Below are positions 20 through 27,095 of a stretch of DNA of 34,885 nt, piece after piece. The stretch's first letter is position 1; every line of letters begins with the position of its first letter. The translations under genes were made by a program, and so were the position numbers. This stretch comes from Nitrospirota bacterium (GTDB lineage: Bacteria > Nitrospirota > Thermodesulfovibrionia > Thermodesulfovibrionales > UBA1546). Location of the stretch: NCBI GenBank assembly GCA_004298625.1, contig SCSY01000159.1:1-34885 (forward strand). The letters run 5' to 3'. Under the pieces are notes generated by a model. It saw only the letters and a list, made by a program, of their open reading frames with translations, did no database searches and was not told the DNA's origin.

Positions 20-3000
20 ATGGCAGGCTGGGCAATAAATTGGATTATCATCGCAAGGATCAAATCTGATTACGTCCCGATGGCGCCAAGCACGGCTCTA
101 TGTTTTATCTTATTGAGCGGTTCATTATTTCTGCAGCTGCTACGTCGCGGGCGTCCTCTAAGCCGCATGCTTTCGAGCGCAGGCGCATTGCTGGTTTTGC
201 TTATATGCTCTGTAATACTTATCGGATTTTTTAAAGGGATAAGGTTTGAGCTTGAACATTCCCTGTTTAAACAGAGTGAAGAACTCGGCAATATTCCCGT
301 AGGCCACATGTCTCCGATTACAGCTTTGGGCTTTTTGCCGGCAGGGTTAGCGGTTTTGTCATTGGCTGTTTCTACTGTGGAGCAGCGATTCAAAAATATG
401 GCGGTATGCCTTGCCGCCCCTGCCGTTGCAACAGGGCTTGTAACAGCATTGGGTTATCTTCACGGTTCGCCGGTATTATATGGCGGGAACATAATCCCTG
501 TAGCTCTGCCGACAGCTATTGCCTTTTTGTTTCTGGGACTGGGACTCATCGCCGCTTCAGGGACGGATGTTTTTCCTCTTCGGTTATTTATAGGGTCTTC
601 CGTGCGGGCCAGGTTGATGCGGGCCTTTCTTCCTGCCGCTATCGGCATCATCCTGATCGTCGGCTGGCTGGATGCCTTTATTCTTTCCCCTTTAGTGAAA
701 AGCCCTGCATGGTCGTCCGCTCTGGCCACAGGAGTATCCGTAATTATCTTCGGCATTATCATCTCAAAAATATCACAGGTTATCGGAAACAGCATTGACA
801 GCGCCATCGCCGAGCGCAAAAAGGCAGAGGCCGCGCTGTGTGCAAGTGAATCGAGTCTTTCCGAAGCGCAGAGGATCGGCCATATGGGGAACTGGGATTG
901 GGATATTCAGACAAATGAACTGCGTTGGTCTGATGAGATATATCGTATTTTCGGTTTGACCCCTCAGAGCTTCGGCGCAACTTATGATGCGTTTTTAAAT
1001 TCCGTGCACCCGGGCGACAGGGAATATGTTAAGGGAAAAGTTAAAGAGGCTTTATATAAGATGAAGCCTTACGGCATAGACCATCGCATTGTCTTGCCGG
1101 ACGGTCTGGAGCGAATTGTTCACGAACAGGGAGAGGTCCTGTTTAACGAAGCCGGAAAACCCATACGCATGATCGGAACGGTTCAGGATATCACCGGGAG
1201 CAAAAAGGCTGAGGAAGAATTACTCAGACTTAACAGGACGCTCAAAACGATCTCCGAATGCAATCAGGCCCTTGTGCGGGCCACAAGTGAAAAGAAGCTG
1301 CTCGGCGATATATGCAGGATCATCAAAGAATACGGAGGTTATCGCATGGCGCTGGTAGGTTATACGGAACAGAATGAGGAGAAAACAGTATGCGCCGTTG
1401 CGCAGGCAGGATACGAAGAAGGTTTTCTTGAAACAGTAAAGCTGACTTGGGCTGATACGGAATCAGGCAACGGGCCTATCGGCACGGCAATCAGGACCCG
1501 CAATATGGCTGTTTTTAAAAATGTTAATTCCGGGCAATATCCTGCTTTATGGCGCTCGGCGGCTGTTAAGCGGGGATATAGCTCTGCCGTGGGGCTGCCG
1601 TTGATATCAAATGCGGAGATATTAGGCGCTATTGCCATTTATTCATCGGAATCCGAGGCCTTTGACGATGAGGAACTTAAACTGCTTGTGGAGCTTTCGG
1701 AAGACTTGGCATTCGGCATCGCTGTATTGCGTATGCGCGCAGAGCGCATACATGCCGGAGAAAAGCTGCGTGAGAGCGAGGAGCGTTACAGGCAGCTTCT
1801 CGGCTCCTTAACAAGCTATATTTACACTGTCCGGGTGGAAAACGGCCGTTCGGCTGAAACCATACACAGTCCGGCCTGCGCAGCGGTAACAGGTTATGAT
1901 GCGGAAGAATACAAGAAAGACCCTGAGCTCTGGTACAACATGATCCATGAAGACGACAGGGGTCTTGTTATGGAGCATGTGTCCAATATCCTGCAGAGGA
2001 GGATCGCCTCTTCCGTAGAACACCGGATATCCCATAAGGACGGCTCTATTCGCTGGGTGCGGGATACCATGGTTCCGAAATTCGATGATCACGGACAACT
2101 TATTGCTTATGACGGCCTTGTTGCGGATATCACCGAACGCAAAACCGCAGAGGAGGCCATAAAAGGATATAACCTTGAACTCGAAGAAAAGGTCAGGGAA
2201 AGGACCGGCGATCTTAAGAAGGCCAACAGGGGACTTAAGGCGCTGAATAAAGAGGCCGAAGAGGCAAAAATTCAGGCGCTTGAGGCAAACAAGGCAAAGT
2301 CTGATTTTCTGGCCAACATGAGCCATGAACTAAGGACCCCGCTTAACTCGATAATCGGATTTTCAGAAGTTCTTCAGGATGAATTGTTTGGAAAACTGAA
2401 TGCAAAACAAAAAGATCATATCTCAAATATCTACGGCAGCGGGAAACATTTGTTATCTCTTATTAACGACATACTCGACCTGTCAAAGATTGAATCCGGC
2501 AAGATGGAACTCGAAGTAAGCAGATTTTTACTGAAGGATATGCTTAATGGTTCTGTGCTTATTTTTAAAGAAAAGGCTATGAAACAGGATATTGAGCTTA
2601 GCCTCAGGATTGAACCTGATGCGGACATCGAGATAGAGGCGGATGCGAGGAAATCAAAGCAGATAATGTTTAACCTGCTGAGCAATGCGCTTAAATTTAC
2701 GCCGAAAGGGGGAAGCGTGAGCGTGAGCGCACGCCTGATTTCGGATTTCGGATTTCGGAATGCGGAATTGAAAGACGAAAAATCAGCAATCCGCAATCAG
2801 CAATCCGCAATGGCCGGAGATTTCATCGAAATCAGCGTCGCTGACACCGGCGTAGGAATAAAGGCCGGGGATATGCCGAAACTATTTAAGGAATTTACAC
2901 AGCTTGAATCTGCGTATACCAAAAGCTATGAAGGCACGGGCCTTGGCCTTGCGCTCTCAAAAAAGCTTGTTGAACTTCACGGCGGAAAGATCCGGGCCGA

Positions 3001-3091
3001 GAGCGAACCTGGCAAGGGGAGCAGGTTTGTGTTTGTCATCCCGGTAAGGCATTCCAAAGATACATCGGGTCCCGGAGCCCGGAAGGAATAA
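20..3091 (+). CDS. Multi-domain sensor histidine kinase (polytopic membrane N-terminus, PAS, GAF, PAS, HisKA, HATPase_c)
   Basis: 1023-aa ORF. Several hydrophobic helices in the first ~250 aa. PAS-like GNWDWD..LRWSDEIYRIFG. H-box MSHELRTPLNSI, N box NLLSNALKFTP, G1 DTGVGI, G2 GTGLGLALS. Its stop lies 1 nt before the next ATG. Confidence 0.9.
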   Translation: MAGWAINWIIIARIKSDYVPMAPSTALCFILLSGSLFLQLLRRGRPLSRMLSSAGALLVLLICSVILIGFFKGIRFELEHSLFKQSEELGNIPVGHMSPITALGFLPAGLAVLSLAVSTVEQRFKNMAVCLAAPAVATGLVTALGYLHGSPVLYGGNIIPVALPTAIAFLFLGLGLIAASGTDVFPLRLFIGSSVRARLMRAFLPAAIGIILIVGWLDAFILSPLVKSPAWSSALATGVSVIIFGIIISKISQVIGNSIDSAIAERKKAEAALCASESSLSEAQRIGHMGNWDWDIQTNELRWSDEIYRIFGLTPQSFGATYDAFLNSVHPGDREYVKGKVKEALYKMKPYGIDHRIVLPDGLERIVHEQGEVLFNEAGKPIRMIGTVQDITGSKKAEEELLRLNRTLKTISECNQALVRATSEKKLLGDICRIIKEYGGYRMALVGYTEQNEEKTVCAVAQAGYEEGFLETVKLTWADTESGNGPIGTAIRTRNMAVFKNVNSGQYPALWRSAAVKRGYSSAVGLPLISNAEILGAIAIYSSESEAFDDEELKLLVELSEDLAFGIAVLRMRAERIHAGEKLRESEERYRQLLGSLTSYIYTVRVENGRSAETIHSPACAAVTGYDAEEYKKDPELWYNMIHEDDRGLVMEHVSNILQRRIASSVEHRISHKDGSIRWVRDTMVPKFDDHGQLIAYDGLVADITERKTAEEAIKGYNLELEEKVRERTGDLKKANRGLKALNKEAEEAKIQALEANKAKSDFLANMSHELRTPLNSIIGFSEVLQDELFGKLNAKQKDHISNIYGSGKHLLSLINDILDLSKIESGKMELEVSRFLLKDMLNGSVLIFKEKAMKQDIELSLRIEPDADIEIEADARKSKQIMFNLLSNALKFTPKGGSVSVSARLISDFGFRNAELKDEKSAIRNQQSAMAGDFIEISVADTGVGIKAGDMPKLFKEFTQLESAYTKSYEGTGLGLALSKKLVELHGGKIRAESEPGKGSRFVFVIPVRHSKDTSGPGARKE
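2737..2811 (+). repeat. In-frame heptamer-array inverted repeat: GATTTCG-type x5, spacer, AATCMGC-type x4
   Basis: Direct reading: GATTTCG x3, GAATGCG, GAATTGA, then aagacgaaa, then AATCAGC AATCCGC AATCAGC AATCCGC AAT. The arms are approximately complementary. 75 nt, translated as part of kinase 1. Confidence 0.8.
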
Positions 3092-3092
3092 A

Positions 3093-3467
3093 ATGTCCGA
3101 AAAGATACTTATTGCCGAGGATAACGAGAACAACAGGAAATTGATAAGTGATATCCTGGTCTATTACGGCTATGAAGTCGTAGAGGCCAAAGACGGGGCC
3201 GAGGCCGTTGAAATGGTTGCCGGAGAAAAGCCTGACTTGATACTTATGGATATACAGATGCCTGTCATGGACGGTTTAACAGCGCTCAAAATAATAAGAA
3301 ATGATTTAAAGATGAAGGGGGTAAAGATTATTGCCCTTACGTCCTTTGCAATGAAGGGCGACAGAGAAAGATTTTTGAAAGTCGGGTTTGATGATTATAT
3401 CACAAAGCCCATAGACACCAGGATATTGCCCGGAATAGTTAAAAATATTCTGGCGGGGAAACGCTGA
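3093..3467 (+). CDS. Single-domain response regulator (CheY-like receiver)
   Basis: 124 aa. [10 protein letters not shown], phospho-acceptor context [19 protein letters not shown] and KP motifs. Stop 1 nt before the next ATG. Confidence 0.9.
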
Positions 3468-3468
3468 A

Positions 3469-4800
3469 ATGGATAAATTTTTCGAGAGGATAAGCATCGA
3501 GGGCAAAAGCCTGCGCAACAACCTCACCGTTATAGCGACGCTTATGTATGTGCTGCCTTCTGCCGTAATGCTTTATATTTTGCACAAGGAAAATATCCTG
3601 CCGGATGTCATAACGCCCTACATTTTCATGTATAGCCTTACCATCCTGCTTGCGCTTGCAGGCCTGTTCATTCTGAGGAGAATTTTTCTGGATTTTCTAA
3701 GAATAATCAATTCCGTGAAAATGGTTGAATCAGGCAGCATAAATACAATAGAGATTTCCAAAAGCGCCGAAGAACTCAGGGATATAGCGGTTATATTCAA
3801 TAAATTCATAAAAAGGCTTGAGGAGACAACGCTTCTCCTGGATAAAGAAACGGAAAAACTTAAGCAGGAGACGTTAAGGCGTGAAAAGGCGGAATGGGAA
3901 TTGCGCAAGCTGAATGAGGAACTCGAATTGAAGATTAAAGAAAGGACCAGGGAGCTTGAAACAGCCAGGGACGCTGCAGAGGCTGCCAGTTGCGCCAAGA
4001 CGGAGTTTATAGCAAACATGAGCCATGAGATAAGGACGCCGCTCAACTCCATAATAGGATTTTCCGAGGTTCTGCATGACGGCCTGTTTGGACCGTTGAA
4101 TGAAAAGCAGAAGGAATATGTGAGCGATATACTGCTTGGCGGAAGAAACCTGCTTGAACTTATTCTGAATATTCTCGATTTTTCAGGGCTGGAATCAGGC
4201 GCCCTTAGAATTCAAAAAACAAGGTTTTTATTGAAGGATATTTTAAATTCATCCGTAACAGAGATGTCTGAAGTTCTAAAGACCCGCCATATAAATGTAA
4301 CACTTGAAATAGAACCCGATGCAGGCAAGGAGATCGAGGCGGATCGGGAAAAACTAAAACGGATAATATCGAATCTTATGAAAAATGCCGTGAAGTTCAC
4401 GCCGGATGGGGGCTTCGTGAGCGTGAGCGCACGGAAAGGGATTAGGGATTTGGGATTAGGGATTGGCGAAAAAGAACTAACCCCGGGACCCCAATCCCCA
4501 ACCCCTGATGCCGATTTCATAGAAATCAGCGTCGCCGACACCGGCATCGGAATAAAATCAGAGGACTTTCCAATGCTTTTCAAAGAATTTACACAGCTTG
4601 AAACGCCGTATACGAAAAAATACAAGGGCGCGGGTCTGGGGCTTGCGCTGACAAAGAAACTTGTAGCGCTTCTCGGCGGAAAGATATGGGTCGAAAGTGA
4701 ATTCGGCAAGGGAAGCAAGTTCACTTTTGCGGTGCCCATAAAGCAGGAAGCGCCCCGGGTTTCCGAATTCTTTCATGGAGGAACTAATGAATCCGACTAA
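3469..4800 (+). CDS. Membrane sensor histidine kinase (2 TM, coiled coil, HisKA, HATPase_c); paralogue of the 20..3091 kinase core
   Basis: H-box [13 protein letters not shown] box [12 protein letters not shown]1 DTGIGI, G2 GAGLGLALT. The DHp/CA region aligns residue by residue with kinase 1, for example GFSEVL, RFLLKD, IEPDA..EIEAD, VSVSAR and [11 protein letters not shown]. Confidence 0.9.
4438..4505 (+). repeat. In-frame heptamer-array inverted repeat: GGGATTN x4, spacer, C-rich arm
   Basis: GGGATTA GGGATTT GGGATTA GGGATTG, then gcgaaaaagaact, then AACCCC GGG ACCCC AATCCCC AACCCC. GGGATTG (4459-4465) pairs exactly with CAATCCC (4492-4498). Translated as [23 protein letters not shown]. Confidence 0.8.
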
Positions 4801-6340
4801 ACCCAAAATACTTTGTGTTGACGATGAGCCTGCAAATCTTAAACTCCTCGAAGCAATGCTTGAGCCGAGAGGTTATGAGGTGGTCAAGGCTGAGGACGGC
4901 ATAGAGGCGCTGGAGAAGATTAAAGAGCACAATATCGCCCTTGCGCTTCTGGATGTTATGTTGCCGAAGGTCAATGGTTTCGAGGTCTGCAGGATGATTA
5001 AAGGCGATGAAATGTACAGGCATATCCCCGTAGTTTTTGTTACCGGCCTGACGGCGCAGGAAGACAGGATAAAGGGCATTGCGGCAGGCGCGGAGGACTT
5101 TGTATCCAAACCCTTTGACCAGGGAGAGATACTTGCGAGGATAGATATGCTTCTCAAGGTCAGGGATCTGAACAACAGGCTCAATTCCGCATATAACACG
5201 ATAACAAATCTGATAACCTTCGGGAAAAACATAGCAATGACTTTTGACCCGCTTGATTTCGACTTCCTGTCGAGGATTGACAGCAGCATTGCCCGGTTTA
5301 TAAAAAACTCGCCCGACATGATTGACAAGCCTCAGATTGTCGTTGTCGGCATAGCCTCGGCTTCTTCACCCCTACTCGTTAGGGGAGGCGCGGCAGGAGG
5401 ATGGCAGTGGTATAGGTATGAGTCGGACTCAGGCGAGTTGAGAAGGACGCCGATTGATTCCGGCATCTATAAGTATCTGGAATTGCCTCCTGACGGCAGT
5501 TCAAAAACAGCCTTTTATAACGAGGCTGATTTAAGGGGATCGGGGTTGGGATTGTTTACTGACAAGCTTGAGACGATGTCGGTCAAGGCGTCGAATATGG
5601 TCTGTTTTGTAAGCGGAGCTTTCTGCGTCTTTGCCGTTAATTATGCCAGGGCTGTTTCCATGTTCGATGCAGAGGTGTTAAACAGCATAGTGATGCAGGA
5701 CCTTTATTTAAAATCCCTTGCGTCTCAGGTAAAGGAGACGGAGGATGCCTTCGATTACCTTGTATTTGCCCTTGCAAGGGCGGCGGAAGCCAATGACGAG
5801 GATACAGGGAATCATATCATGAGGGTCGGCGAGTATTGCGCGCTTATAGCACGGCAGCTCGGGATGCCGGAGAAGTTTTCGGATATTTTCCGCATCCAGG
5901 CCACCCTCCACGACGTTGGAAAAATCCATGTGTCTCCGCTGGTGCTCAAAAAACCGGGGAAGCTTACGCCGGAGGAATTCGAGCAAATGAAAAGGCATCC
6001 CGTATATGGAGCCATGATACTCGGAGATCATGTTAGGCTTAAACTTGCAAAATCCATAGCCCTTACGCATCACGAAAGATGGGATGGAAGCGGTTATCCT
6101 TACGGGCTGAAGGGCGAGCAGATACCTATAGAAGGAAGAATATTAAACATAGCAGACCAGTATGATGCCCTGAGGAACCCGCGTCCCTATAAACCTGCCC
6201 TGGATCACCCGACAACATATAAAATAATCGCAGAGGGCGACGGCAGGACCTTGCCGGGCCATTTCGATCCTGCAGTGCTGAAGGCATTTAAAGAAACCGT
6301 CTCACAATTTGAAGATATTTATGAAAGGCTGAAGGGATAG
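4775..6340 (+). CDS. Response regulator with C-terminal HD-GYP phosphodiesterase domain (RpfG-like); central ~200 aa of unknown function
   Basis: REC motifs [26 protein letters not shown] motifs [29 protein letters not shown]. Overlaps the kinase 2 stop. An alternative ATG at 4787 follows GGAGGA. Confidence 0.9.
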
Positions 6341-14566: not shown

Positions 14567-14628
14567 CAGTTATCAGTTATTAGTTGTCAGTTTTTGGACT
14601 AACAACTAAAAACTAAGAACTAAAAACT
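14567..14628 (+). repeat. Intergenic heptamer-array hairpin, CAGTTAT-type x4 then AACTAAN-type x4; terminator-like
   Basis: CAGTTAT CAGTTAT TAGTTGT CAGTTTT tgg act AACAACT AAAAACT AAGAACT AAAAACT, followed by TTTTT. TTAGTTGT (14580-14587) pairs perfectly with ACAACTAA (14603-14610). Confidence 0.8.
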
Positions 14629-14959: not shown

Positions 14960-16000
14960 ATGAGTGCTAAGACCATTAATTTCAGGAAAGCGCCTGGAAA
15001 AATCCTCATAATCAAACCGAGTTCTCTCGGCGACATTGTCCACAGCCTGCCGTTTCTTAATGTCTTAAGGGAGAGCTTCCCAAAATCCGAGATTCATTGG
15101 GTTGTTGCAAGAGGGCTCGAGGGCCTGCTTGAAGGCCATCCGATGATAAACAAGCTCTGGGTCATAAACAAGGATGAATGGAAAAAGATAAAGAATGTTA
15201 AGGGCACGGTAAGGGAACTGGCAAAATTATTTGGGGCCTTGAAGAACGAGAGATTTGACCTTGTGGTTGACCTTCAGGGACTCCTGCGAAGCGGAATTCT
15301 GGCGGCGGCAACACGCTCTCCCTTGCGGATAGGGTTCAGCGAGGCAAGGGAAGGCGGCAGTCTATTTTATACGCACAGGGTTAAAGGAGGAAAGGAGATA
15401 CACGCCGTGGACAGGTATCTTAAGATTGCGCAATCACTCGGCTGCAATATTTCTGATATCAGATTTCCTTTTCCATTATCTTTCAACTCTTCACTTTCAA
15501 CTCCTAACTTTCAACTTCCAAAGGAATACGCCGTGATTGTTCCCGGCGCAAGATGGCAGACCAAGAGATGGCCTGCCGGGAGATTTGGAGAGTTGGCGTC
15601 AATGTTGTCAATAACGTCTCTTATTGTCGGCGGAAAAGCTGATATCGAGATATCAAATAGAGTTGCAGCAGGCTCCAAAGGCAATGCCATATCTCTTGCA
15701 GGCAAAACGAGCATTAAAGACCTGATAGATATAATGAGAAACGCTCAGTTTGTTGTAAGCAATGATTCAGGCCCCATGCATATTGCGGCAGCCCTCGGCG
15801 TGCCTGTCTTTGCGATATTCGGCCCTACGAATCCGTCAAGGACAGGGCCTTACGGCAAAGGGCATGTAATTATAAGAAAAGGGCTTGAATGCTCTCCGTG
15901 CTATAAAAAAAGCTGCAAAGATATCAGGTGCATGGCTGCCGTAAGCGTTAAAGAAGCCGCTGAAATTATCGGGCGGAGAGCGCATAAAAAAGGTTATTGA
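14960..16000 (+). CDS. Glycosyltransferase family 9 (LPS heptosyltransferase-like)
   Basis: ILIIKPSSLGDIVHSLP near the N-terminus and NDSGPMHIAAALGVPVFAIFGPTNP near the C-terminus. Confidence 0.85.
   Translation: MSAKTINFRKAPGKILIIKPSSLGDIVHSLPFLNVLRESFPKSEIHWVVARGLEGLLEGHPMINKLWVINKDEWKKIKNVKGTVRELAKLFGALKNERFDLVVDLQGLLRSGILAAATRSPLRIGFSEAREGGSLFYTHRVKGGKEIHAVDRYLKIAQSLGCNISDIRFPFPLSFNSSLSTPNFQLPKEYAVIVPGARWQTKRWPAGRFGELASMLSITSLIVGGKADIEISNRVAAGSKGNAISLAGKTSIKDLIDIMRNAQFVVSNDSGPMHIAAALGVPVFAIFGPTNPSRTGPYGKGHVIIRKGLECSPCYKKSCKDIRCMAAVSVKEAAEIIGRRAHKKGY
15480..15521 (+). repeat. In-frame 14-nt x3 tandem repeat (CTTTCAACTYYYMA), heptamer-periodic
   Basis: CTTTCAACTCTTCA CTTTCAACTCCTAA CTTTCAACTTCCAA. 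42 nt, translated SFNSSLSTPNFQLP in the inter-domain linker of the GT9 enzyme. Confidence 0.85.
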
Positions 16001-16572: not shown

Positions 16573-16588
16573 AAAGGGGGTGAAGAAG

Positions 16589-16623
16589 ATTTAATATTCA
16601 AGATTCAAGATTTAAAATTTAAA
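16589..16623 (+). repeat. Heptamer array ATTYAAR x5 abutting the Shine-Dalgarno of the rhodanese gene
   Basis: ATTTAAT ATTCAAG ATTCAAG ATTTAAA ATTTAAA, then AAGGAGG. Confidence 0.7.
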
Positions 16624-16634
16624 AAGGAGGATTT

Positions 16635-19196: not shown

Positions 19197-20654
19197 GTGG
19201 AAACAACGGTAGATACGTCGGAAAAAAAGAATCAGATATGGGCCTTTATAATTACGGGCGCCATGCTCCTCATCAGTCTCATGTACTACAAGGCCAGTCC
19301 ATATTATATGTATATTGTGGTATATGTCTGGTTTGGATTTGCTTATGGTATGATGCTTCAGTATGGAAGGTTTTGTTTTGCCTCTGCTTCGAGGGACCTT
19401 TTTGCTGCGGGTGTTCCCCGAATGGCGGTAGGCGTTCTTGTTGCCCTGATGTTTTTCAGCCTTATTCAAGCAACTCTCTCCTCGACCAACATGAGCACGT
19501 TCCATCCTGCGCCGTTCGGGATACATACGCTCATAGCAGGCCTGATCTTCGGCGTTGGAATGGTCCTTTCAGGAGGCTGCGCATCAGGCTCTCTCTACAA
19601 GATAGGCGAGGGTAATATGACTTCCTTCCTGGCTGCATTCTTTGGTCTCTGCATCGGTCAGGCAATATTCGTGGACGTCAAATGGTTTGATTTCCTTATC
19701 CCTCAGAAATGGGTTGATTCGGCAATGGCAAAGGGACTTCCTGCCGAGGTAATGACTTCGTCTTTCGACAAATATCTTGCAGGCTATATCTGGGATCAGC
19801 CGTCTATTCAGTTATCTCACACAAAGGCTGTATCCGAGGCATTGCCCGGAATATCCAGGTATTTTATAGCCGATTCACTGCTTAATACCCTGATACCTGC
19901 AATGGTAGTTCTTATCGTGATCTACTACTTCTACAGCAGGAAAGGGTTTATGAAGAAAAGGGCCAAGGTAAAAAGCGGCCCAACCGGCTTCGGCGATGAG
20001 GCTGCAGGTTTATGGAATATGATAACCGCATCAAAGAGAACGACTATTATGGGCGTAATAATCGGCATGGTGGCAGGACTGCACATATTTGTAATAAAAG
20101 GGATGCAGATTAAATACGGCGTTACAAATTTTGGACAGGTGCTGACAAGGATGAATAATGCCGGTGACATAACGCTCAAGGCAGGTGAGGTAGGGATCAA
20201 GGGCACAATCTTTGATCCGGGATACTGGTATATTACCAGCCAAGAGGGACAGCTCGGAGCCTGGATCCTTGAAAAATTCGGCTGGAATATGAGAGATAAT
20301 ATATTCTTTGGAGTAAATAACGGTCTTCCGGAACCATGGCGCAATCCAGCCCTCTGGATGTCTCTCGGCATTATTTTTGGGGCAATGGTAATGGCAAGGC
20401 TGAATAACGAATACAAGTTCAAGCTGCCTAAAGGAGAGCTTATTGTTTGGGGTCTTCTCGGCGGAATATTAATGGGCTGGGGTTCGAGGCCTGCGCTCGG
20501 CTGCAATATCGGAGCATTCTTTATAAGAGTCGCCGGCGGGGACCCGAGCGGCTGGTTATATGGCACAGGCATGGTCGGCGGAGCCTTTGTCGGAGTAAAG
20601 TTTTTCAACTGGTGGTCCGAGAGAAAGATGGCAAAGGAAATGGAATCGTTTTAA
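19197..20654 (+). CDS. YeeE/YedE-family sulfur (thiosulfate) transporter, long two-half form
   Basis: GTG start after AGGAGG. Conserved half-site motifs GGCASGSLY and LGCNIGAF. Polytopic. 485 aa because of extra loops between the halves. Confidence 0.8.
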   Translation: METTVDTSEKKNQIWAFIITGAMLLISLMYYKASPYYMYIVVYVWFGFAYGMMLQYGRFCFASASRDLFAAGVPRMAVGVLVALMFFSLIQATLSSTNMSTFHPAPFGIHTLIAGLIFGVGMVLSGGCASGSLYKIGEGNMTSFLAAFFGLCIGQAIFVDVKWFDFLIPQKWVDSAMAKGLPAEVMTSSFDKYLAGYIWDQPSIQLSHTKAVSEALPGISRYFIADSLLNTLIPAMVVLIVIYYFYSRKGFMKKRAKVKSGPTGFGDEAAGLWNMITASKRTTIMGVIIGMVAGLHIFVIKGMQIKYGVTNFGQVLTRMNNAGDITLKAGEVGIKGTIFDPGYWYITSQEGQLGAWILEKFGWNMRDNIFFGVNNGLPEPWRNPALWMSLGIIFGAMVMARLNNEYKFKLPKGELIVWGLLGGILMGWGSRPALGCNIGAFFIRVAGGDPSGWLYGTGMVGGAFVGVKFFNWWSERKMAKEMESF

Positions 20655-20696
20655 AAATTAAAAATTTAAAATTAAACACTAAGGAGGAATTTAATC

Positions 20697-20980: not shown

Positions 20981-21262
20981 ATGAAAACACCTCTGGTGAT
21001 TATAATCGTAGTTGTTGTTGCTATGCTTGGTTTTTTGACCATCTACAGCCAGCAGCATGACATGACTGCGCAGGAACAGGGACACGGAGGAGCAGCAGGA
21101 GGTTATGGGACTTCTGCGCCGGCATCCGGCGGGTATGGAACTACTGCACCCGCAGCAGGCGGATATGGGGCTTCTGCCCCTGCAGCAGGAGGTTATGGGG
21201 CTTCCGCGCCGGCATCCGGTGGGTATGGAGCAGCGCCCGCGGCAGGCGGATATGGCAAATAA
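20981..21262 (+). CDS. Small signal/anchor protein with Gly-Tyr-Ala-Pro decapeptide repeats
   Basis: GAGGAGGG RBS. Hydrophobic N-terminus MKTPLVIIIVVVVAMLGFLTIY, then six copies of A[AS]GGYG[AT][ST]AP. Confidence 0.6.
   Translation: MKTPLVIIIVVVVAMLGFLTIYSQQHDMTAQEQGHGGAAGGYGTSAPASGGYGTTAPAAGGYGASAPAAGGYGASAPASGGYGAAPAAGGYGK
21092..21259 (+). repeat. 30-nt coding tandem repeat organised as a 90-nt super-repeat x2
   Basis: Units R1-R6. R1 resembles R4 (GCAGCAGGAGGTTATGGG), R2 resembles R5 (GCATCCGGYGGGTATGGA), and R3 resembles R6 (GCRGCAGGCGGATATGG). Confidence 0.85.
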
Positions 21263-21894: not shown

Positions 21895-23295
21895 GTGAAA
21901 AACTTGACCGATTCTGAAAATCAAATCCTTATACTCGGCGGGGGACTCACAGGGCTTTCAGCCGGATATGTCCTTACAGGCTCGGGGTTCCGCGTCAAAG
22001 TGTTCGAGAGGGACGATGCAGTCGGCGGACTTTCAAAGACTATTATCCATAACGGCTTTCGTTTTGATTTAGGCGGGCACAGATTTTTTACAAAAGATAA
22101 TAAAGTAAATGATTTCGTGAAAAGCCTGATGGATGAAGAACTGATTGAGGTTGCGCGCAAAAGTAAGATTTATATGCGCAACAGGTATTTCGATTATCCG
22201 CTTAAACCCGTAAATGCCATATTCGGTATGGGCCTCCCGACTACACTTAAGATTATATCCGACTATGGCCTTGAGAAGATTAAAAAACTCATAAAAGAGC
22301 CGGATAATATTTCTCTCGAAGACTGGGTAGTCGGTAATTTCGGCCGCAAGATGTTTGACATCTATTTCAAGGAATACAGCGAAAAGGTGTGGGGCATCAA
22401 CTGCGACAGGATTAGCTCTGAATGGGTGGAGCAGCGCATAAGAGGGCTTTCCCTTGCAAAGGCCGTTAAGAACGCCTTTTTCAAGGTGAATGGGAAAGAT
22501 GTGCCGACACTTGCCGACAGGTTTCTATATCCGCAACTGGGCATAGGGCGCATTTCCGACAGGTTGAGGGAGGAGATAGACAGGCACAATGATGTGTTTA
22601 CCGGCACAGGCGTGAAATGTATTAACCACTCTGATTACAGGATAGAGGGCATTGAGGTTGGAAACCCGTTGCATTCCGGTGTAATACATGGAAGGGAAAT
22701 TATATCAAGCATACCAATGAATAAGCTGGTCCTGATGCTTAATCCGTCTCCGCCTGAGGATATTCTCGATGCAGCTTTAAAACTGAAGTTCAGGGATATT
22801 GTCATAGTGACGGTAATGATTGACAGAGAAAGAGTTACGGATCAGACATGGATATATGTCCCTGAAAAGAAGATACCTTTCGGCAGGATCCACGAGCCTA
22901 CGAACTGGAGCAGGAAGATGGCCCCCGAAGGCAAGACGCTTATCGTGACGGAGTTTTTCAGCTTTAAAGGCGACGGGATATGGAATGAGAACGATGAACG
23001 GCTCGTTGCTGTTACTGTTGAGAATCTGGAAAAACTTGGATTTATTAAGAAGCATGAGGTGATAGACAGCGCCGTGGTAAGGGTGCCCGGGGCCTATCCT
23101 TTGTTTGAGGTGGGATATAAAGAATTGTGCGATAAATTATATGATTATTTAAGCAGGTTCGGGAATCTCCATATCGCGGGCAGGGGTGGGATGTTCAGAT
23201 ACTATAATATGGACCATGCGATTGAGTCCGGGATAAAGGCGGCGGAGAAAATTTTAATCAAGGCTGACAGCTATCAGCTATCAGCTATCAGCTAA
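21895..23295 (+). CDS. FAD/NAD(P)-dependent oxidoreductase (amine-oxidase / UDP-galactopyranose-mutase-like fold)
   Basis: GTG start. Dinucleotide fold ILILGGGLTGLSAGYVL..VKVFERDDAVGGL. FDLGGHRFF. Confidence 0.7.
   Translation: MKNLTDSENQILILGGGLTGLSAGYVLTGSGFRVKVFERDDAVGGLSKTIIHNGFRFDLGGHRFFTKDNKVNDFVKSLMDEELIEVARKSKIYMRNRYFDYPLKPVNAIFGMGLPTTLKIISDYGLEKIKKLIKEPDNISLEDWVVGNFGRKMFDIYFKEYSEKVWGINCDRISSEWVEQRIRGLSLAKAVKNAFFKVNGKDVPTLADRFLYPQLGIGRISDRLREEIDRHNDVFTGTGVKCINHSDYRIEGIEVGNPLHSGVIHGREIISSIPMNKLVLMLNPSPPEDILDAALKLKFRDIVIVTVMIDRERVTDQTWIYVPEKKIPFGRIHEPTNWSRKMAPEGKTLIVTEFFSFKGDGIWNENDERLVAVTVENLEKLGFIKKHEVIDSAVVRVPGAYPLFEVGYKELCDKLYDYLSRFGNLHIAGRGGMFRYYNMDHAIESGIKAAEKILIKADSYQLSAIS
23266..23293 (+). 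repeat. Heptamer array (G/A)(A/T)CAGCT x4 forming the last codons and the stop of the oxidoreductase
   Basis: GACAGCT ATCAGCT ATCAGCT ATCAGCT, with TAA at 23293-23295. Encodes the tail SYQLSAIS. The next ATG is at 23298. Confidence 0.8.
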
Positions 23296-24922: not shown

Positions 24923-25459
24923 ATGAAACTTCCATTGCAGATAACCGCCCGTAACCTCGACCTGCCCGATGCCTTCAGGGAAAATATTCGCGACAAGGCA
25001 GAGAAACTTGACGAGTTTTATGACCGGATTATGAGGTGCAGGGTTGTTGTGGAATCACCGCACAGGCATAGTCATGAAGGGATAAAATATAACGTGCATA
25101 TTGAGATGACAGTGCCTGGAGCCGAGCTGGTAATAAAACGAGAGCCCAACGAAGATCTTAATGTGGCGATAAGGGATGCATTTGATGCAGCGCGCCGCAG
25201 GTTGGAAGATTTTGCCAGAAAGCAGAGGGGCGATGTCAAGCAGCGCGAGGAGACAGGGCATGCGAGCGTAACCAGGATATTCCCGGATAAGGGCTACGGG
25301 TTTTTGACTACGCAGGACGGCAGGGAAATATATTTTCACAAAAACAGCGTTCTGCACGACAAATTCAAGCATCTGAAACCAGGCATGGAGGTGCGTTTTG
25401 CGGAAGAGGAAGGTGAAAAAGGACCGCAGGCCAGCACAGTTACTGTAATAAAAGGCTGA
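24923..25459 (+). CDS. Ribosome hibernation factor (HPF/RaiA, S30AE) domain fused to a cold-shock domain
   Basis: N-terminal MKLPLQITARNLDLPDAFRENIRDKAEKL..YNVHIEMTVPG. C-terminal CSD with ITRIFPDKGYGFLTTQDGREIYFH. Confidence 0.75.
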   Translation: MKLPLQITARNLDLPDAFRENIRDKAEKLDEFYDRIMRCRVVVESPHRHSHEGIKYNVHIEMTVPGAELVIKREPNEDLNVAIRDAFDAARRRLEDFARKQRGDVKQREETGHASVTRIFPDKGYGFLTTQDGREIYFHKNSVLHDKFKHLKPGMEVRFAEEEGEKGPQASTVTVIKG

Positions 25460-25979: not shown

Positions 25980-27095
25980 TCATCGGATTTGAATATATTC
26001 TTTTGCAAGCTTATGATACAGCTTCGGATTGAACAGGATGTTTGTCATAAAATAACACTCGTGTGTGCAAAAGCATTGTCTTTTCCGTATTGAATCAATT
26101 ATCCGCCGGGCTTTTTCCGACTGGATAATTCTCTCCATGTCGTAATCATAATTCTTTACATTTCCAAAACTGTCCGTAAGGATCTCGCATGGGAAGACAT
26201 CGCCATTTTCCGTCAGCACAAGGTTCAGCCTGCCGGCATAGCACGGGATAAGGCGTTTTTGTTCGAGCAGGGTCTGATGTATCAGGCGGCGCTGCAGAAT
26301 ATCCTGCGCGGCCTTAATGCGCGCCCCTTTGAATCTGTAGGTCGGCGCTTTTTTATCTCTAAGGTTTTTTTCAAGCTTTTCAATGGCAAGAAAATATTTT
26401 CCAATATCAACATCCTTGTAGCTTTCGTCCGGGATATTTCCCCGTATCAGAGAGATTGTATGTGTCTTTATTTTTTTAAGCGAGCCGGCAAAGTCAATTA
26501 TCTCATCCATCCTGTCCTGATTCTTCGAGCAAAAAACCGTATTGATCCCCAGTTCGAAATTAGGGTATTTGTCAATGAGGTTTTCAAGCAGGTGGTATGT
26601 CTCCAGCGTTTTCCCGAAACTTCCCTGAGTATTCCTGATTTCATCATGCAGCCCGTAAAGGCCGTCAATGGAGAGTTTTACGACAATTATGCTTTTCGGA
26701 GAATTTTTAAGTATCTGCTCTGTCCTTTCTTTAATCAGTTCGGGAAGCAGGCCGTTTGTAGGGAAGAGCATTATGGACGGTTTATTATTTTTATAAAAAA
26801 TTCTGCTTATCTCGACAAGGTCGTCTCTGAGAAATATTTCGCCTCCTGAAAAGGCGAGCCAGAGAAGGCTGCCGAGCGATTTTGATATTTTCTGTATTTC
26901 ATCGAGCGTGAGCTCATCCGATACCCCCCCTCCGCCCCCCCTTGTTAAGGGGGGGATTGGGGGGGTGCTTTTCAAATAAAAACAGAACGGGCATTTTGAA
27001 TTACACCTTTTGGTTACAAAAAATGTAAGATGAATCGGTCTTCTTTTATAGAAGATAGAAGGAGTATGGCGTAATAACCGGTGCATTAGACTCAC
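25980..27095 (-). CDS. Radical SAM enzyme with C-terminal SPASM/twitch-type Cys cluster
   Basis: CNSKCPFC near the N-terminus. C-terminal IPCYAG..VFPCE..CFCTHEC. Confidence 0.8.
   Translation of the reverse strand: MSLMHRLLRHTPSIFYKRRPIHLTFFVTKRCNSKCPFCFYLKSTPPIPPLTRGGGGGVSDELTLDEIQKISKSLGSLLWLAFSGGEIFLRDDLVEISRIFYKNNKPSIMLFPTNGLLPELIKERTEQILKNSPKSIIVVKLSIDGLYGLHDEIRNTQGSFGKTLETYHLLENLIDKYPNFELGINTVFCSKNQDRMDEIIDFAGSLKKIKTHTISLIRGNIPDESYKDVDIGKYFLAIEKLEKNLRDKKAPTYRFKGARIKAAQDILQRRLIHQTLLEQKRLIPCYAGRLNLVLTENGDVFPCEILTDSFGNVKNYDYDMERIIQSEKARRIIDSIRKRQCFCTHECYFMTNILFNPKLYHKLAKEYIQIR
26924..26965. repeat. In-frame C7/G7 nested palindrome (42 nt)
   Basis: CCCCCCC tccg CCCCCCC ttgttaa GGGGGGG att GGGGGGG. 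Translated on the minus strand as PPIPPLTRGGGGGV, directly after the CX3CX2C motif. Confidence 0.85.

Follow-up and report, generated by a model that had tools for sequence, protein, structure and literature searches.

We analysed a 34,885-bp Nitrospirota contig (hereafter the window), which samples its metagenome-assembled genome (MAG) as a piece of about 35 kb. Near its start lies a signalling cluster that encodes kinase 1, a receiver protein, kinase 2 and a receiver-HD protein (Table 1), and the element under study is a palindromic insert built from 7-nt repeats in the ATP-binding domain of kinase 2. Pfam places HisKA at residues 176-244 and HATPase_c at residues 292-425 (E = 4.5e-26) of this kinase, which is identical to P0001, named at NCBI as a Nitrospirae MAG protein; the contig collection, searched for the exact sequence of kinase 2, contained no match.

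A heptamer-repeat hairpin between the N box and the G1 box

The insert lies in frame between the N box and the G1 box, DTGIGI, at the coordinates (4438-4505) and with the sequence that a first-pass annotation of this DNA had given. The four heptamers of its left arm are translated as G-I-R-D-L-G-L-G-I, and the right arm, whose units of 6-8 nt read AACCCC, GGGACCCC, AATCCCC and AACCCC, as T-P-G-P-Q-S-P-T-P; the loop between them is of a GAAAAA type that recurs in related inserts. At 4437-4464, Tandem Repeats Finder (TRF) detects 4.0 copies of a 7-nt period with 90% matches. A strict scan for period 7 counts 3 arrays across the window, where 20 shuffles give 0.0, and the left arm is a heptameric simple-sequence repeat of head-to-tail units. 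The inverted repeat joins 4438-4461 to 4489-4512 (24 nt, 79% complementary), and GGGATTG pairs exactly, as had been pointed out, with the CAATCCC present in the right arm. The insert is a stem carrying 7-nt repeats on both sides, strictly of period 7 on the left and irregular on the right.

Folded as plus-strand RNA, the insert reaches -26.9 kcal/mol, with z = -1.8 against dinucleotide shuffles; the minus strand reaches -37.5 kcal/mol (z = -4.7), and 0 of 200 shuffles fold as well. The hairpin is real and strong on the antisense strand only, because the A-C mismatches of each unit turn into G-U pairs there; the sense strand carries one or two such mismatches per unit. A regular expression for G-quadruplex (G4) motifs finds G3N4 x4 in the left arm on the plus strand (4438-4461) and a second motif in the right arm on the minus strand (4481-4505), so that this insert's arms account, one on each strand, for two of the four G4 motifs in the window, where 0.25 per strand are expected. 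Rfam assigned no family at the gathering threshold anywhere in the window.

Kinase 1 carries an insert of the same build at the same codon position, with TRF period-7 arrays at 2737-2759 and 2781-2811 and an inverted repeat of 32-nt arms (78% complementary); its hairpin folds weakly on either strand (z about -1). The two genes share their flanks, as was noted at first reading: the 5' sequence CGTGAGCGTGAGCGCACG is identical and the 3' flank nearly so. The units, which the first-pass annotation had called unrelated (GATTTCG versus GGGATTN), turn out to resemble each other once they are set in register, since in the register of kinase 1 those of kinase 2 read GATTTGG or GATTAGG, and GATTTCG matches GATTTGG at 6 of 7 positions. 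The right-arm units AATCCGC and AATCCCC also agree at 6/7, a match that random heptamers attain or exceed with a chance of 0.009, and alignment of the two inserts yields 45 identical columns against 28.1 +/- 5.1 (maximum 37) in shuffles. GATTTCG was also considered as the source of every unit type, a proposal that we dropped: three types lie one step away from it, and AGTTCAA, ACGAGGG and GTGAACA do not.

The insert lies at the turn of a beta-hairpin (between N box and G1 box) that in solved kinases comprises only a few residues. Alignment of YycG (PDB 3SL2) to kinase 2 opens 21 gap positions, exactly at the insert and only there, and by Pfam and the same alignment the N box, the G1 box and the remainder of HATPase_c are intact around it. 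The AlphaFold model of kinase 2 has strands at residues 316-323 and 350-357 with coil between them, and its confidence score (pLDDT) falls below 50 at 332-343. Based on this model, the insert peptide would be a hydrophilic, probably disordered surface loop, and the kinase would tolerate the insert because it is translated as such a loop.

Table 1. Features of the window discussed in the text, in window coordinates
Feature	Position	Strand	Description	Basis
Signalling cluster	20-6340	+		ORF list, Pfam
Kinase 1 gene	20..3091	+	1023 aa; PAS, GAF, PAS, HisKA, HATPase_c	ORF list, Pfam
Kinase 1 left arm	2737..2769	+	(GATTTCG)x3, then GAATGCG, GAATT	TRF, repeat finder
Kinase 1 right arm	2780..2811	+	(AATCAGC AATCCGC)x2	TRF, repeat finder
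Kinase 1 3' flank palindrome	2819..2833	+	GATTTC ATC GAAATC, encoding D-F-I-E-I	repeat finder
Receiver protein gene	3093-3467	+		ORF list, Pfam
Kinase 2 gene	3469..4800	+	443 aa; HisKA and HATPase_c	ORF list, translation, Pfam
Kinase 2 5' flank	4414..4434	+	beta-strand F-V-S-V-S-A-R after the N box; includes 18 nt identical to kinase 1	alignment, AlphaFold
Kinase 2 left arm	4438..4465	+	four heptamers: GGGATTA 4438-4444, GGGATTT 4445-4451, GGGATTA 4452-4458, GGGATTG 4459-4465	TRF, repeat finder
Kinase 2 loop	4466..4478	+	A-rich 13-nt loop or spacer, GCGAAAAAGAACT	sequence, folding
Kinase 2 right arm	4479..4505	+	C-rich; AACCCC GGG ACCCC AATCCCC AACCCC	repeat finder, folding
Kinase 2 3' flank quasi-palindrome	4507..4533	+	GATGCCGATTTC ATA GAAATCAGCGTC, encoding D-A-D-F-I-E-I-S-V; 12-nt arms, 83% complementary	repeat finder
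Kinase 2 G1 box	4537..4554	+	D-T-G-I-G-I, end of the site	translation
Receiver-HD protein gene	4775-6340	+		ORF list, Pfam
Intergenic hairpin	14567..14628	+	about 4 CAGTTAT, loop, about 4 ACTAAMA, then CTTTTT; between the rubrerythrin gene and the next start codon	TRF, Pfam
In-frame non-heptamer hairpin	26924..26965	-	C7TCCGC7 / G7ATTG7, encoding TPPIPPLTRGGGGGV; in radical-SAM open reading frame (ORF) 25980-27095	sequence, Pfam

Occupancy, turnover and flanks of the kinase site

To place the insert among related proteins, we used the best 120 homologues of the dimerization and histidine phosphotransfer-catalytic and ATP-binding (DHp-CA) region, which show 49-79% identity and whose named sources are Nitrospirota, Thermodesulfovibrionales, Geobacter and Deltaproteobacteria. 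The boxes could be located in 117 of them, and 82 of these have at least 30 residues between the two, empty sites having 18-22. Occupied homologues, about two thirds of the set, carry 30-66 residues at the site, and the inserts fall into at least nine sequence types. Their peptides read as heptamers translated in three frames and then the reverse complements of these (SSEFGVR...SELRTPNSEL, IADCGLR...SAIRNPQ, TRDEGRG...SSLVPRP, VNSEQ...LTTNDY and VRDLGLGIG...PQTPTPD, for example). A few inserts are well-formed hairpins of non-heptameric sequence, such as VGAAPCGCP...SPLH and PPLLKGGEGG, and partial remnants occur in P0011, P0049 and P0120; half-elements such as IPSPQSPTPD alone, NLKLD and VRNPQ are also present. 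DNA from eight loci verifies the types GGGATTN, AGTTCAA, ACGAGGG and GTGAAYA: about four units make up the left arm, and an A-rich loop (GAAAAA) separates it from a right arm complementary to it; several types fold on the minus strand with z-scores from -4.7 to -8.3. A reverse-complement test at the peptide level has low power, because real stems contain mismatches: it flags 21 of the 82 inserts at p <= 0.05 and misses hairpins verified in DNA. A contig scan with a kinase profile served as an empty-site control only, the matches listed being distant kinases of 33-48% identity with mostly short loops; 10 of 80 among them have 30-40 residues at the site without a palindrome.

The first-pass annotation had proposed that the site is either a hotspot hit independently or an ancestral insert that turns over faster than its gene. 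The core of this proposal is borne out: insertion, loss, resizing and change of type at the site all proceed much faster than the evolution of the gene. At the syntenic orthologue locus L081, where a response regulator, a kinase and a response regulator-HD gene follow one another, the kinase matches kinase 2 with 88-92% identity over the 420 and 240 nt on either side, and its site is empty, reading ARGGENFMEIS, which leaves a clean indel of 69 nt (23 codons). Kinase 2 differs from its orthologue by an in-frame palindromic insert of 69 nt within a conserved protein whose Pfam domain is intact on both sides. An empty site exists, and the insert is of period 7 and palindromic in its DNA; the annotation had named the opposite outcome, no empty orthologue and a segment that aligns as ordinary diverged protein, as the end of its proposal. 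In a second orthologous pair, L083 and L084, the kinases are 86.6% identical overall, and the insert block has 17 identical bases among 31 aligned, plus 29 gap columns; the inserts differ in length by a 36-nt indel.

Insert type is almost free of kinase phylogeny. On a neighbour-joining tree of 87 kinases, calculated from about 230 residues with the insert masked and poorly resolved, the type requires 40 Fitch changes, where shuffled labels require 48 (minimum 43), so that at least nine alternative repeat classes occupy one site nearly independently of descent. Inserts are shared by the paralogues of one genome. The kinase pair of L087 is 91% identical within the site and 60% around it, and that of L088 is 85% identical at the site and 59-69% around it. 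Informative sites at which kinase 2 sides with kinase 1 and not with its L081 orthologue number 8 of 19 close to the insert and 27 of 217 in the remainder (Fisher p = 0.0024). The double-left-arm insert of the L084 orthologue is the version found in two L083 paralogues, and the third kinase of L088 (14520-14680) has a chimeric insert combining arms of three types, with AGTTCGG on the left and ATTCCGCAATCCGC plus CGTCCCTCGTCCC on the right. For these reasons, the choice between independent hits and an ancestral, fast-evolving insert is too narrow; gene conversion between paralogues fits best.

The coding flanks of the site are themselves palindromic. In 11 occupied relatives, the codons of (P)D-R-D-F-I-E-I-S-V-T form perfect palindromes with arms of 7-14 nt, compared with a median arm of 3 nt in 70 empty sites; in kinase 2, 10 of 12 pairs are formed. 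The arms stay complementary through differing codons and residues (GACAGAGATTTC / GAAATCTCTGTC, CCACGGAGATTT / AAATCTCCGTGG, ACTGACCGAAATTT / AAATTTCGGTCAGT), with compensating codons such as GAC AGA GAT / ATC TCT GTC, CAC GGA GAT / ATC TCC GTG and ACT GAC CGA AAT / ATT TCG GTC AGT. Covariation of the arms suggests that the strand encoding E-I-S-V served as template for the residues preceding the conserved F. In some relatives the codons of the 5' strand are palindromic as well, for example TCCGTGCATG TT CATGCACGGA.

Heptamer arrays outside the kinase genes

The same class of repeat stands between genes and in other proteins, and the architecture is therefore not specific to kinases. TRF returns ten period-7 rows in the window, corresponding to eight loci, and the arrays each have a different unit. 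Tandem repeats are predominantly of period 7, both in the window and at seven related loci (L082-L088), and the arrays often form inverted pairs between genes; heptameric repeats are thus dispersed on the contig and on all seven related loci.

In metagenomes, the 20-mer TTAGGGATTTGGGATTAGGG has at least 124 matches, and 122 of the 124 listed lie outside kinase sites. Among the matches listed (L089-L208), GGGATT arrays mostly have 4-5 units, and a complementary C-rich arm follows downstream in 41 of 116 unique contexts and upstream in 0; therefore both strands read the G-rich arm first. By eye, GGGATTN pairs with NAACCCC in several of these hairpins, so that G-U pairs arise on just one of the strands, and the loop of several contains an A-run. 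GGGATT arrays or hairpins also stand in frame at domain linkers in CarA, PriA, DprA, a CoxM-CoxS fusion and an ATP-grasp ligase. In L136, such a hairpin links the C-terminal domain of a CO-dehydrogenase flavoprotein to the 2Fe-2S subunit, and the repeat may have fused two adjacent genes there, as in Gmet_0415 of Geobacter metallireducens.

Further repeats were seen in the window. Directly after the CxxxCxxC motif of the radical-SAM protein stands TPPIPPLTRGGGGGV, the product of the non-heptamer hairpin in Table 1, and peptides of its PPL.KGG.GG type occupy the kinase site in P0025, P0041 and P0045. About six CTTTCAA units lie in frame in a family-9 glycosyltransferase (15480-15521; LSFNSSLSTPNFQLP), where a complementary arm was not seen, and the amine-oxidase ORF 21895-23295 ends in four exact CAGCTAT units (23268-23294), which supply its nine final codons and its stop codon. 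A/T-rich heptamer arrays at 16586-16624 (AAGATTC/ATTTAAA) and 20651-20676 (TTAAAAA) immediately precede ribosome-binding sites and start codons, a position like that of the TAACTGA repeats of Beggiatoa. A 144-nt intergenic array of about 20 AGGACGA units in L088 (16628-16771) belongs to the unit family of that genome's kinase inserts. Of longer period is a 30-nt repeat at 21092-21228 (4.6 copies); the small protein encoded there is rich in Gly, Tyr and Ala and carries (AAGGYGTSAP)-like units behind a hydrophobic N-terminus. A single ORF at 24923-25459 joins a Ribosomal_S30AE domain (ribosome hibernation factor) to a cold-shock domain; cold-shock proteins have been suggested as binders of heptamer repeats (PMC4679880).

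Origin of the insert and comparison with known systems

We propose, as the probable though by no means settled reading, that the insert is a heptamer-repeat palindrome drawn from a genome-wide population of period-7 repeats, shaped by slippage, template switching and gene conversion and tolerated in a kinase loop. Within an arm, units would be expanded and homogenised by slippage. The palindromic coding flanks (S-V-x-V-x-A-R and D-x-D-F-I-E-I-S-V) could be sites of intramolecular template switching that makes the arms and keeps them complementary, and ectopic gene conversion through the near-identical flanks may copy inserts among the many kinase paralogues. The insert would then be a passenger at the level of DNA and not an adaptive module of the kinase. 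Several points weigh against this proposal. Slippage, template switching and gene conversion are causes that we infer, and none of the steps was seen directly. In kinase 2, neither arm is simply a copy of the other: the right-hand units measure 6-8 nt, and the variants among them have no mirrored counterpart in the left arm. Old arms, or arms made independently, would explain this better than a template switch in the recent past. The 3' flank palindrome of the window is perfect over 6 nt only (GATTTC / GAAATC), the enrichment of sites shared by kinase 2 and kinase 1 may partly reflect convergent selection on conserved motifs, and the query of the homologue search itself contained the insert. 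Finally, elements of the same heptamer at many unrelated loci and in many samples, several with an A-rich loop and a complementary arm, could indicate true mobility.

That last observation speaks for a small non-autonomous mobile element, of the type of a MITE (a miniature transposable element with inverted repeats), a repetitive extragenic palindrome (REP) or a Rickettsia palindromic element, moved by a hairpin-recognising enzyme with the palindromic flank as its preferred target. The in-frame GGGATT arrays and hairpins of unrelated proteins would follow from such an origin, as would the chimeric insert with arms of three types and the non-heptamer hairpins that also fill the kinase site, one of which has a counterpart in the radical-SAM gene of the window. 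We nevertheless consider mobility unlikely, as the inserts have no constant consensus and no terminal inverted repeat beyond the repeats themselves, unit number and sequence vary freely (eight arrays in the window with eight different units), and the junction between kinase 2 and its orthologue has no target-site duplication. Pfam detected no transposase, REP-associated tyrosine transposase (RAYT) or reverse transcriptase among the 30 ORFs of the window, and inserts shared by paralogues bring shared flanks with them, as conversion predicts. A further, very unlikely reading is that the hairpins are scars of a dedicated form of end healing, in which an enzyme extends both 3' ends of a double-strand break with 7-nt G-rich repeats prior to rejoining. 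If true, this would explain why the G-rich arm comes first on both strands (41 downstream and 0 upstream among the matches listed), why arms of about four units are not copies of each other and why a few unit families recur across phyla, and the palindromic DNA of the kinase beta-hairpin would be a fragile site that is repeatedly broken.

Selection for a nucleic-acid structure, be it an mRNA hairpin or G4 that slows translation midway through the ATP-binding domain, between its two halves, an antisense RNA hairpin or a phase-variation switch in which a single 7-nt unit gained or lost shifts the frame and so turns the kinase off, is quite unlikely in our judgement. The enrichment of G4 motifs in the insert arms speaks for it, as do the preference for four units in G4-forming GGGNATC repeats (PMC4692102), the minus-strand folds, whose stability greatly exceeds that of shuffles (z = -4.7 to -8.3 in several types), and an architecture conserved across sequence types. 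Yet the nearest orthologue lacks the insert, most other types (AGTTCAA, GATTTCG, GTGAAYA) cannot form a G4, and the sense-strand hairpin is weak (z = -1.8) and without an Rfam match; a selected RNA or G4 role is weakly supported. A sense-strand mRNA hairpin in particular is not favoured by the recurrent A-C mismatches on that strand, which are G-U pairs on the antisense strand. Phase variation would suit a unit that is not a multiple of three; the length changes of 69 nt and 36 nt are both in frame, and because all of those observed are multiples of three no frameshift variant was seen, in a protein-based search that would miss frameshifted copies. Ordinary divergence of a protein loop, with periodicity and palindromy arising by chance or from amino-acid composition, is extremely improbable. 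The length between N box and G1 box does vary among histidine kinases, including the distant ones with 30-40 residues and no palindrome (10 of 80), but such drift does not account for exact DNA periodicity against 0 shuffled arrays, for complementary arms, for insert DNA better conserved than the gene between paralogues or for the same DNA element in non-coding contexts.

The heptamer hairpin, a repeat type of non-coding DNA, is thus a routine occupant of the catalytic domain in a major family of bacterial signalling proteins, and kinase inserts are exchanged among paralogues faster than the genes diverge. Trees and alignments of Nitrospirota and Desulfobacterota kinases consequently include a segment without the gene's own history. 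With dozens of natural replicates, the site lends itself to the study of slippage, template switching and ectopic conversion in uncultured bacteria, and for the origin of heptamer repeats it provides a tractable, dated series of gains, losses and replacements. That the turn between N box and G1 box takes 20-50 extra residues is also relevant to protein engineering.

Heptamer arrays are known as cyanobacterial short tandemly repeated repetitive (STRR) sequences, GGGNATC in Xanthomonas and Nostoc, TAACTGA in Beggiatoaceae and GGGACCG in Geobacter metallireducens (PMC4692102, PMC4679880, PMC2700814). The kinase insert shares with these dispersed repeats the 7-nt unit, a preference for about four units (the preferred number in GGGNATC) and G-tracts that could form a G4 (PMC4692102, PMC4679880), and the TAACTGA unit of Beggiatoaceae and cyanobacteria is itself present in the window as CAGTTAT on the other strand (14567-14592). 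Dispersed heptamers occur genome-wide, mostly between genes and near gene ends (PMC4692102, PMC4679880), and the four-unit GGGACCG elements of Geobacter also lie within genes, often paired and once as the linker of fused proteins (PMC2700814). In contrast to the kinase insert, these reports describe direct arrays, without paired inverted arms at a fixed codon position, and none concerns recurrent occupancy of a kinase ATP-binding domain or inserts shared by paralogues. In the literature we found no report of repeats in the ATP-binding loop of kinases; heptamer arrays and, as discussed below, a heptamer stem are known, and their behaviour in this domain appears to be new.

Among palindromic elements, those of Rickettsia, attributed to Ogata and colleagues in 2000, reportedly lie in ORFs, are translated and are tolerated at the surface of conserved proteins. 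They are 100-150 bp long, have a family consensus and use many different sites, unlike the kinase element, which is 45-120 bp long, built of heptamers without a fixed consensus and recurrent at one site. MITEs and Rickettsia palindromic elements are defined by a consensus, terminal inverted repeats and target-site duplication; the kinase 2 junction has no duplication, and the units in the window differ. The GTAG and CGTC tags of REP elements and REPINs are not at the ends of the kinase 2 insert, and RAYT is absent among the 30 window ORFs by Pfam. A mutational mechanism, as opposed to a class of element, is described for quasipalindromes: template switching perfects or extends imperfect inverted repeats by copying one arm from the other, which produces apparent compensatory changes (PMC8794818, PMC8604942), and it creates and maintains hairpins (PMC8794818). 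The covarying 3' flank palindromes of the kinase relatives resemble its products.

The closest precedent for the insert, by analogy of structure and turnover, is the P6b stem of the group I intron in tRNA-Leu(UAA) of Nostoc and Calothrix, which has 7-nt repeats on both sides (PMC4476775). Its repeats in Nostoc are of class I (TDNGATT) or class II (NNTGAGT), the classes have replaced each other repeatedly without following phylogeny, and its length changes by gain and loss of 7-nt units (PMC4476775). P6b belongs to a catalytic RNA in which pairing has a clear structural role, whereas the kinase repeat is translated within an ORF to which Rfam assigns no RNA family; the kinase insert has at least nine types instead of two and a weak hairpin on the sense strand, and its hosts are Nitrospirota and Desulfobacterota instead of Cyanobacteria. 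The likeness extends to the units themselves, as TGGGATT of kinase 2 fits TDNGATT exactly, and AGGGATT, together with TCGGATT of kinase 1, is one position off.

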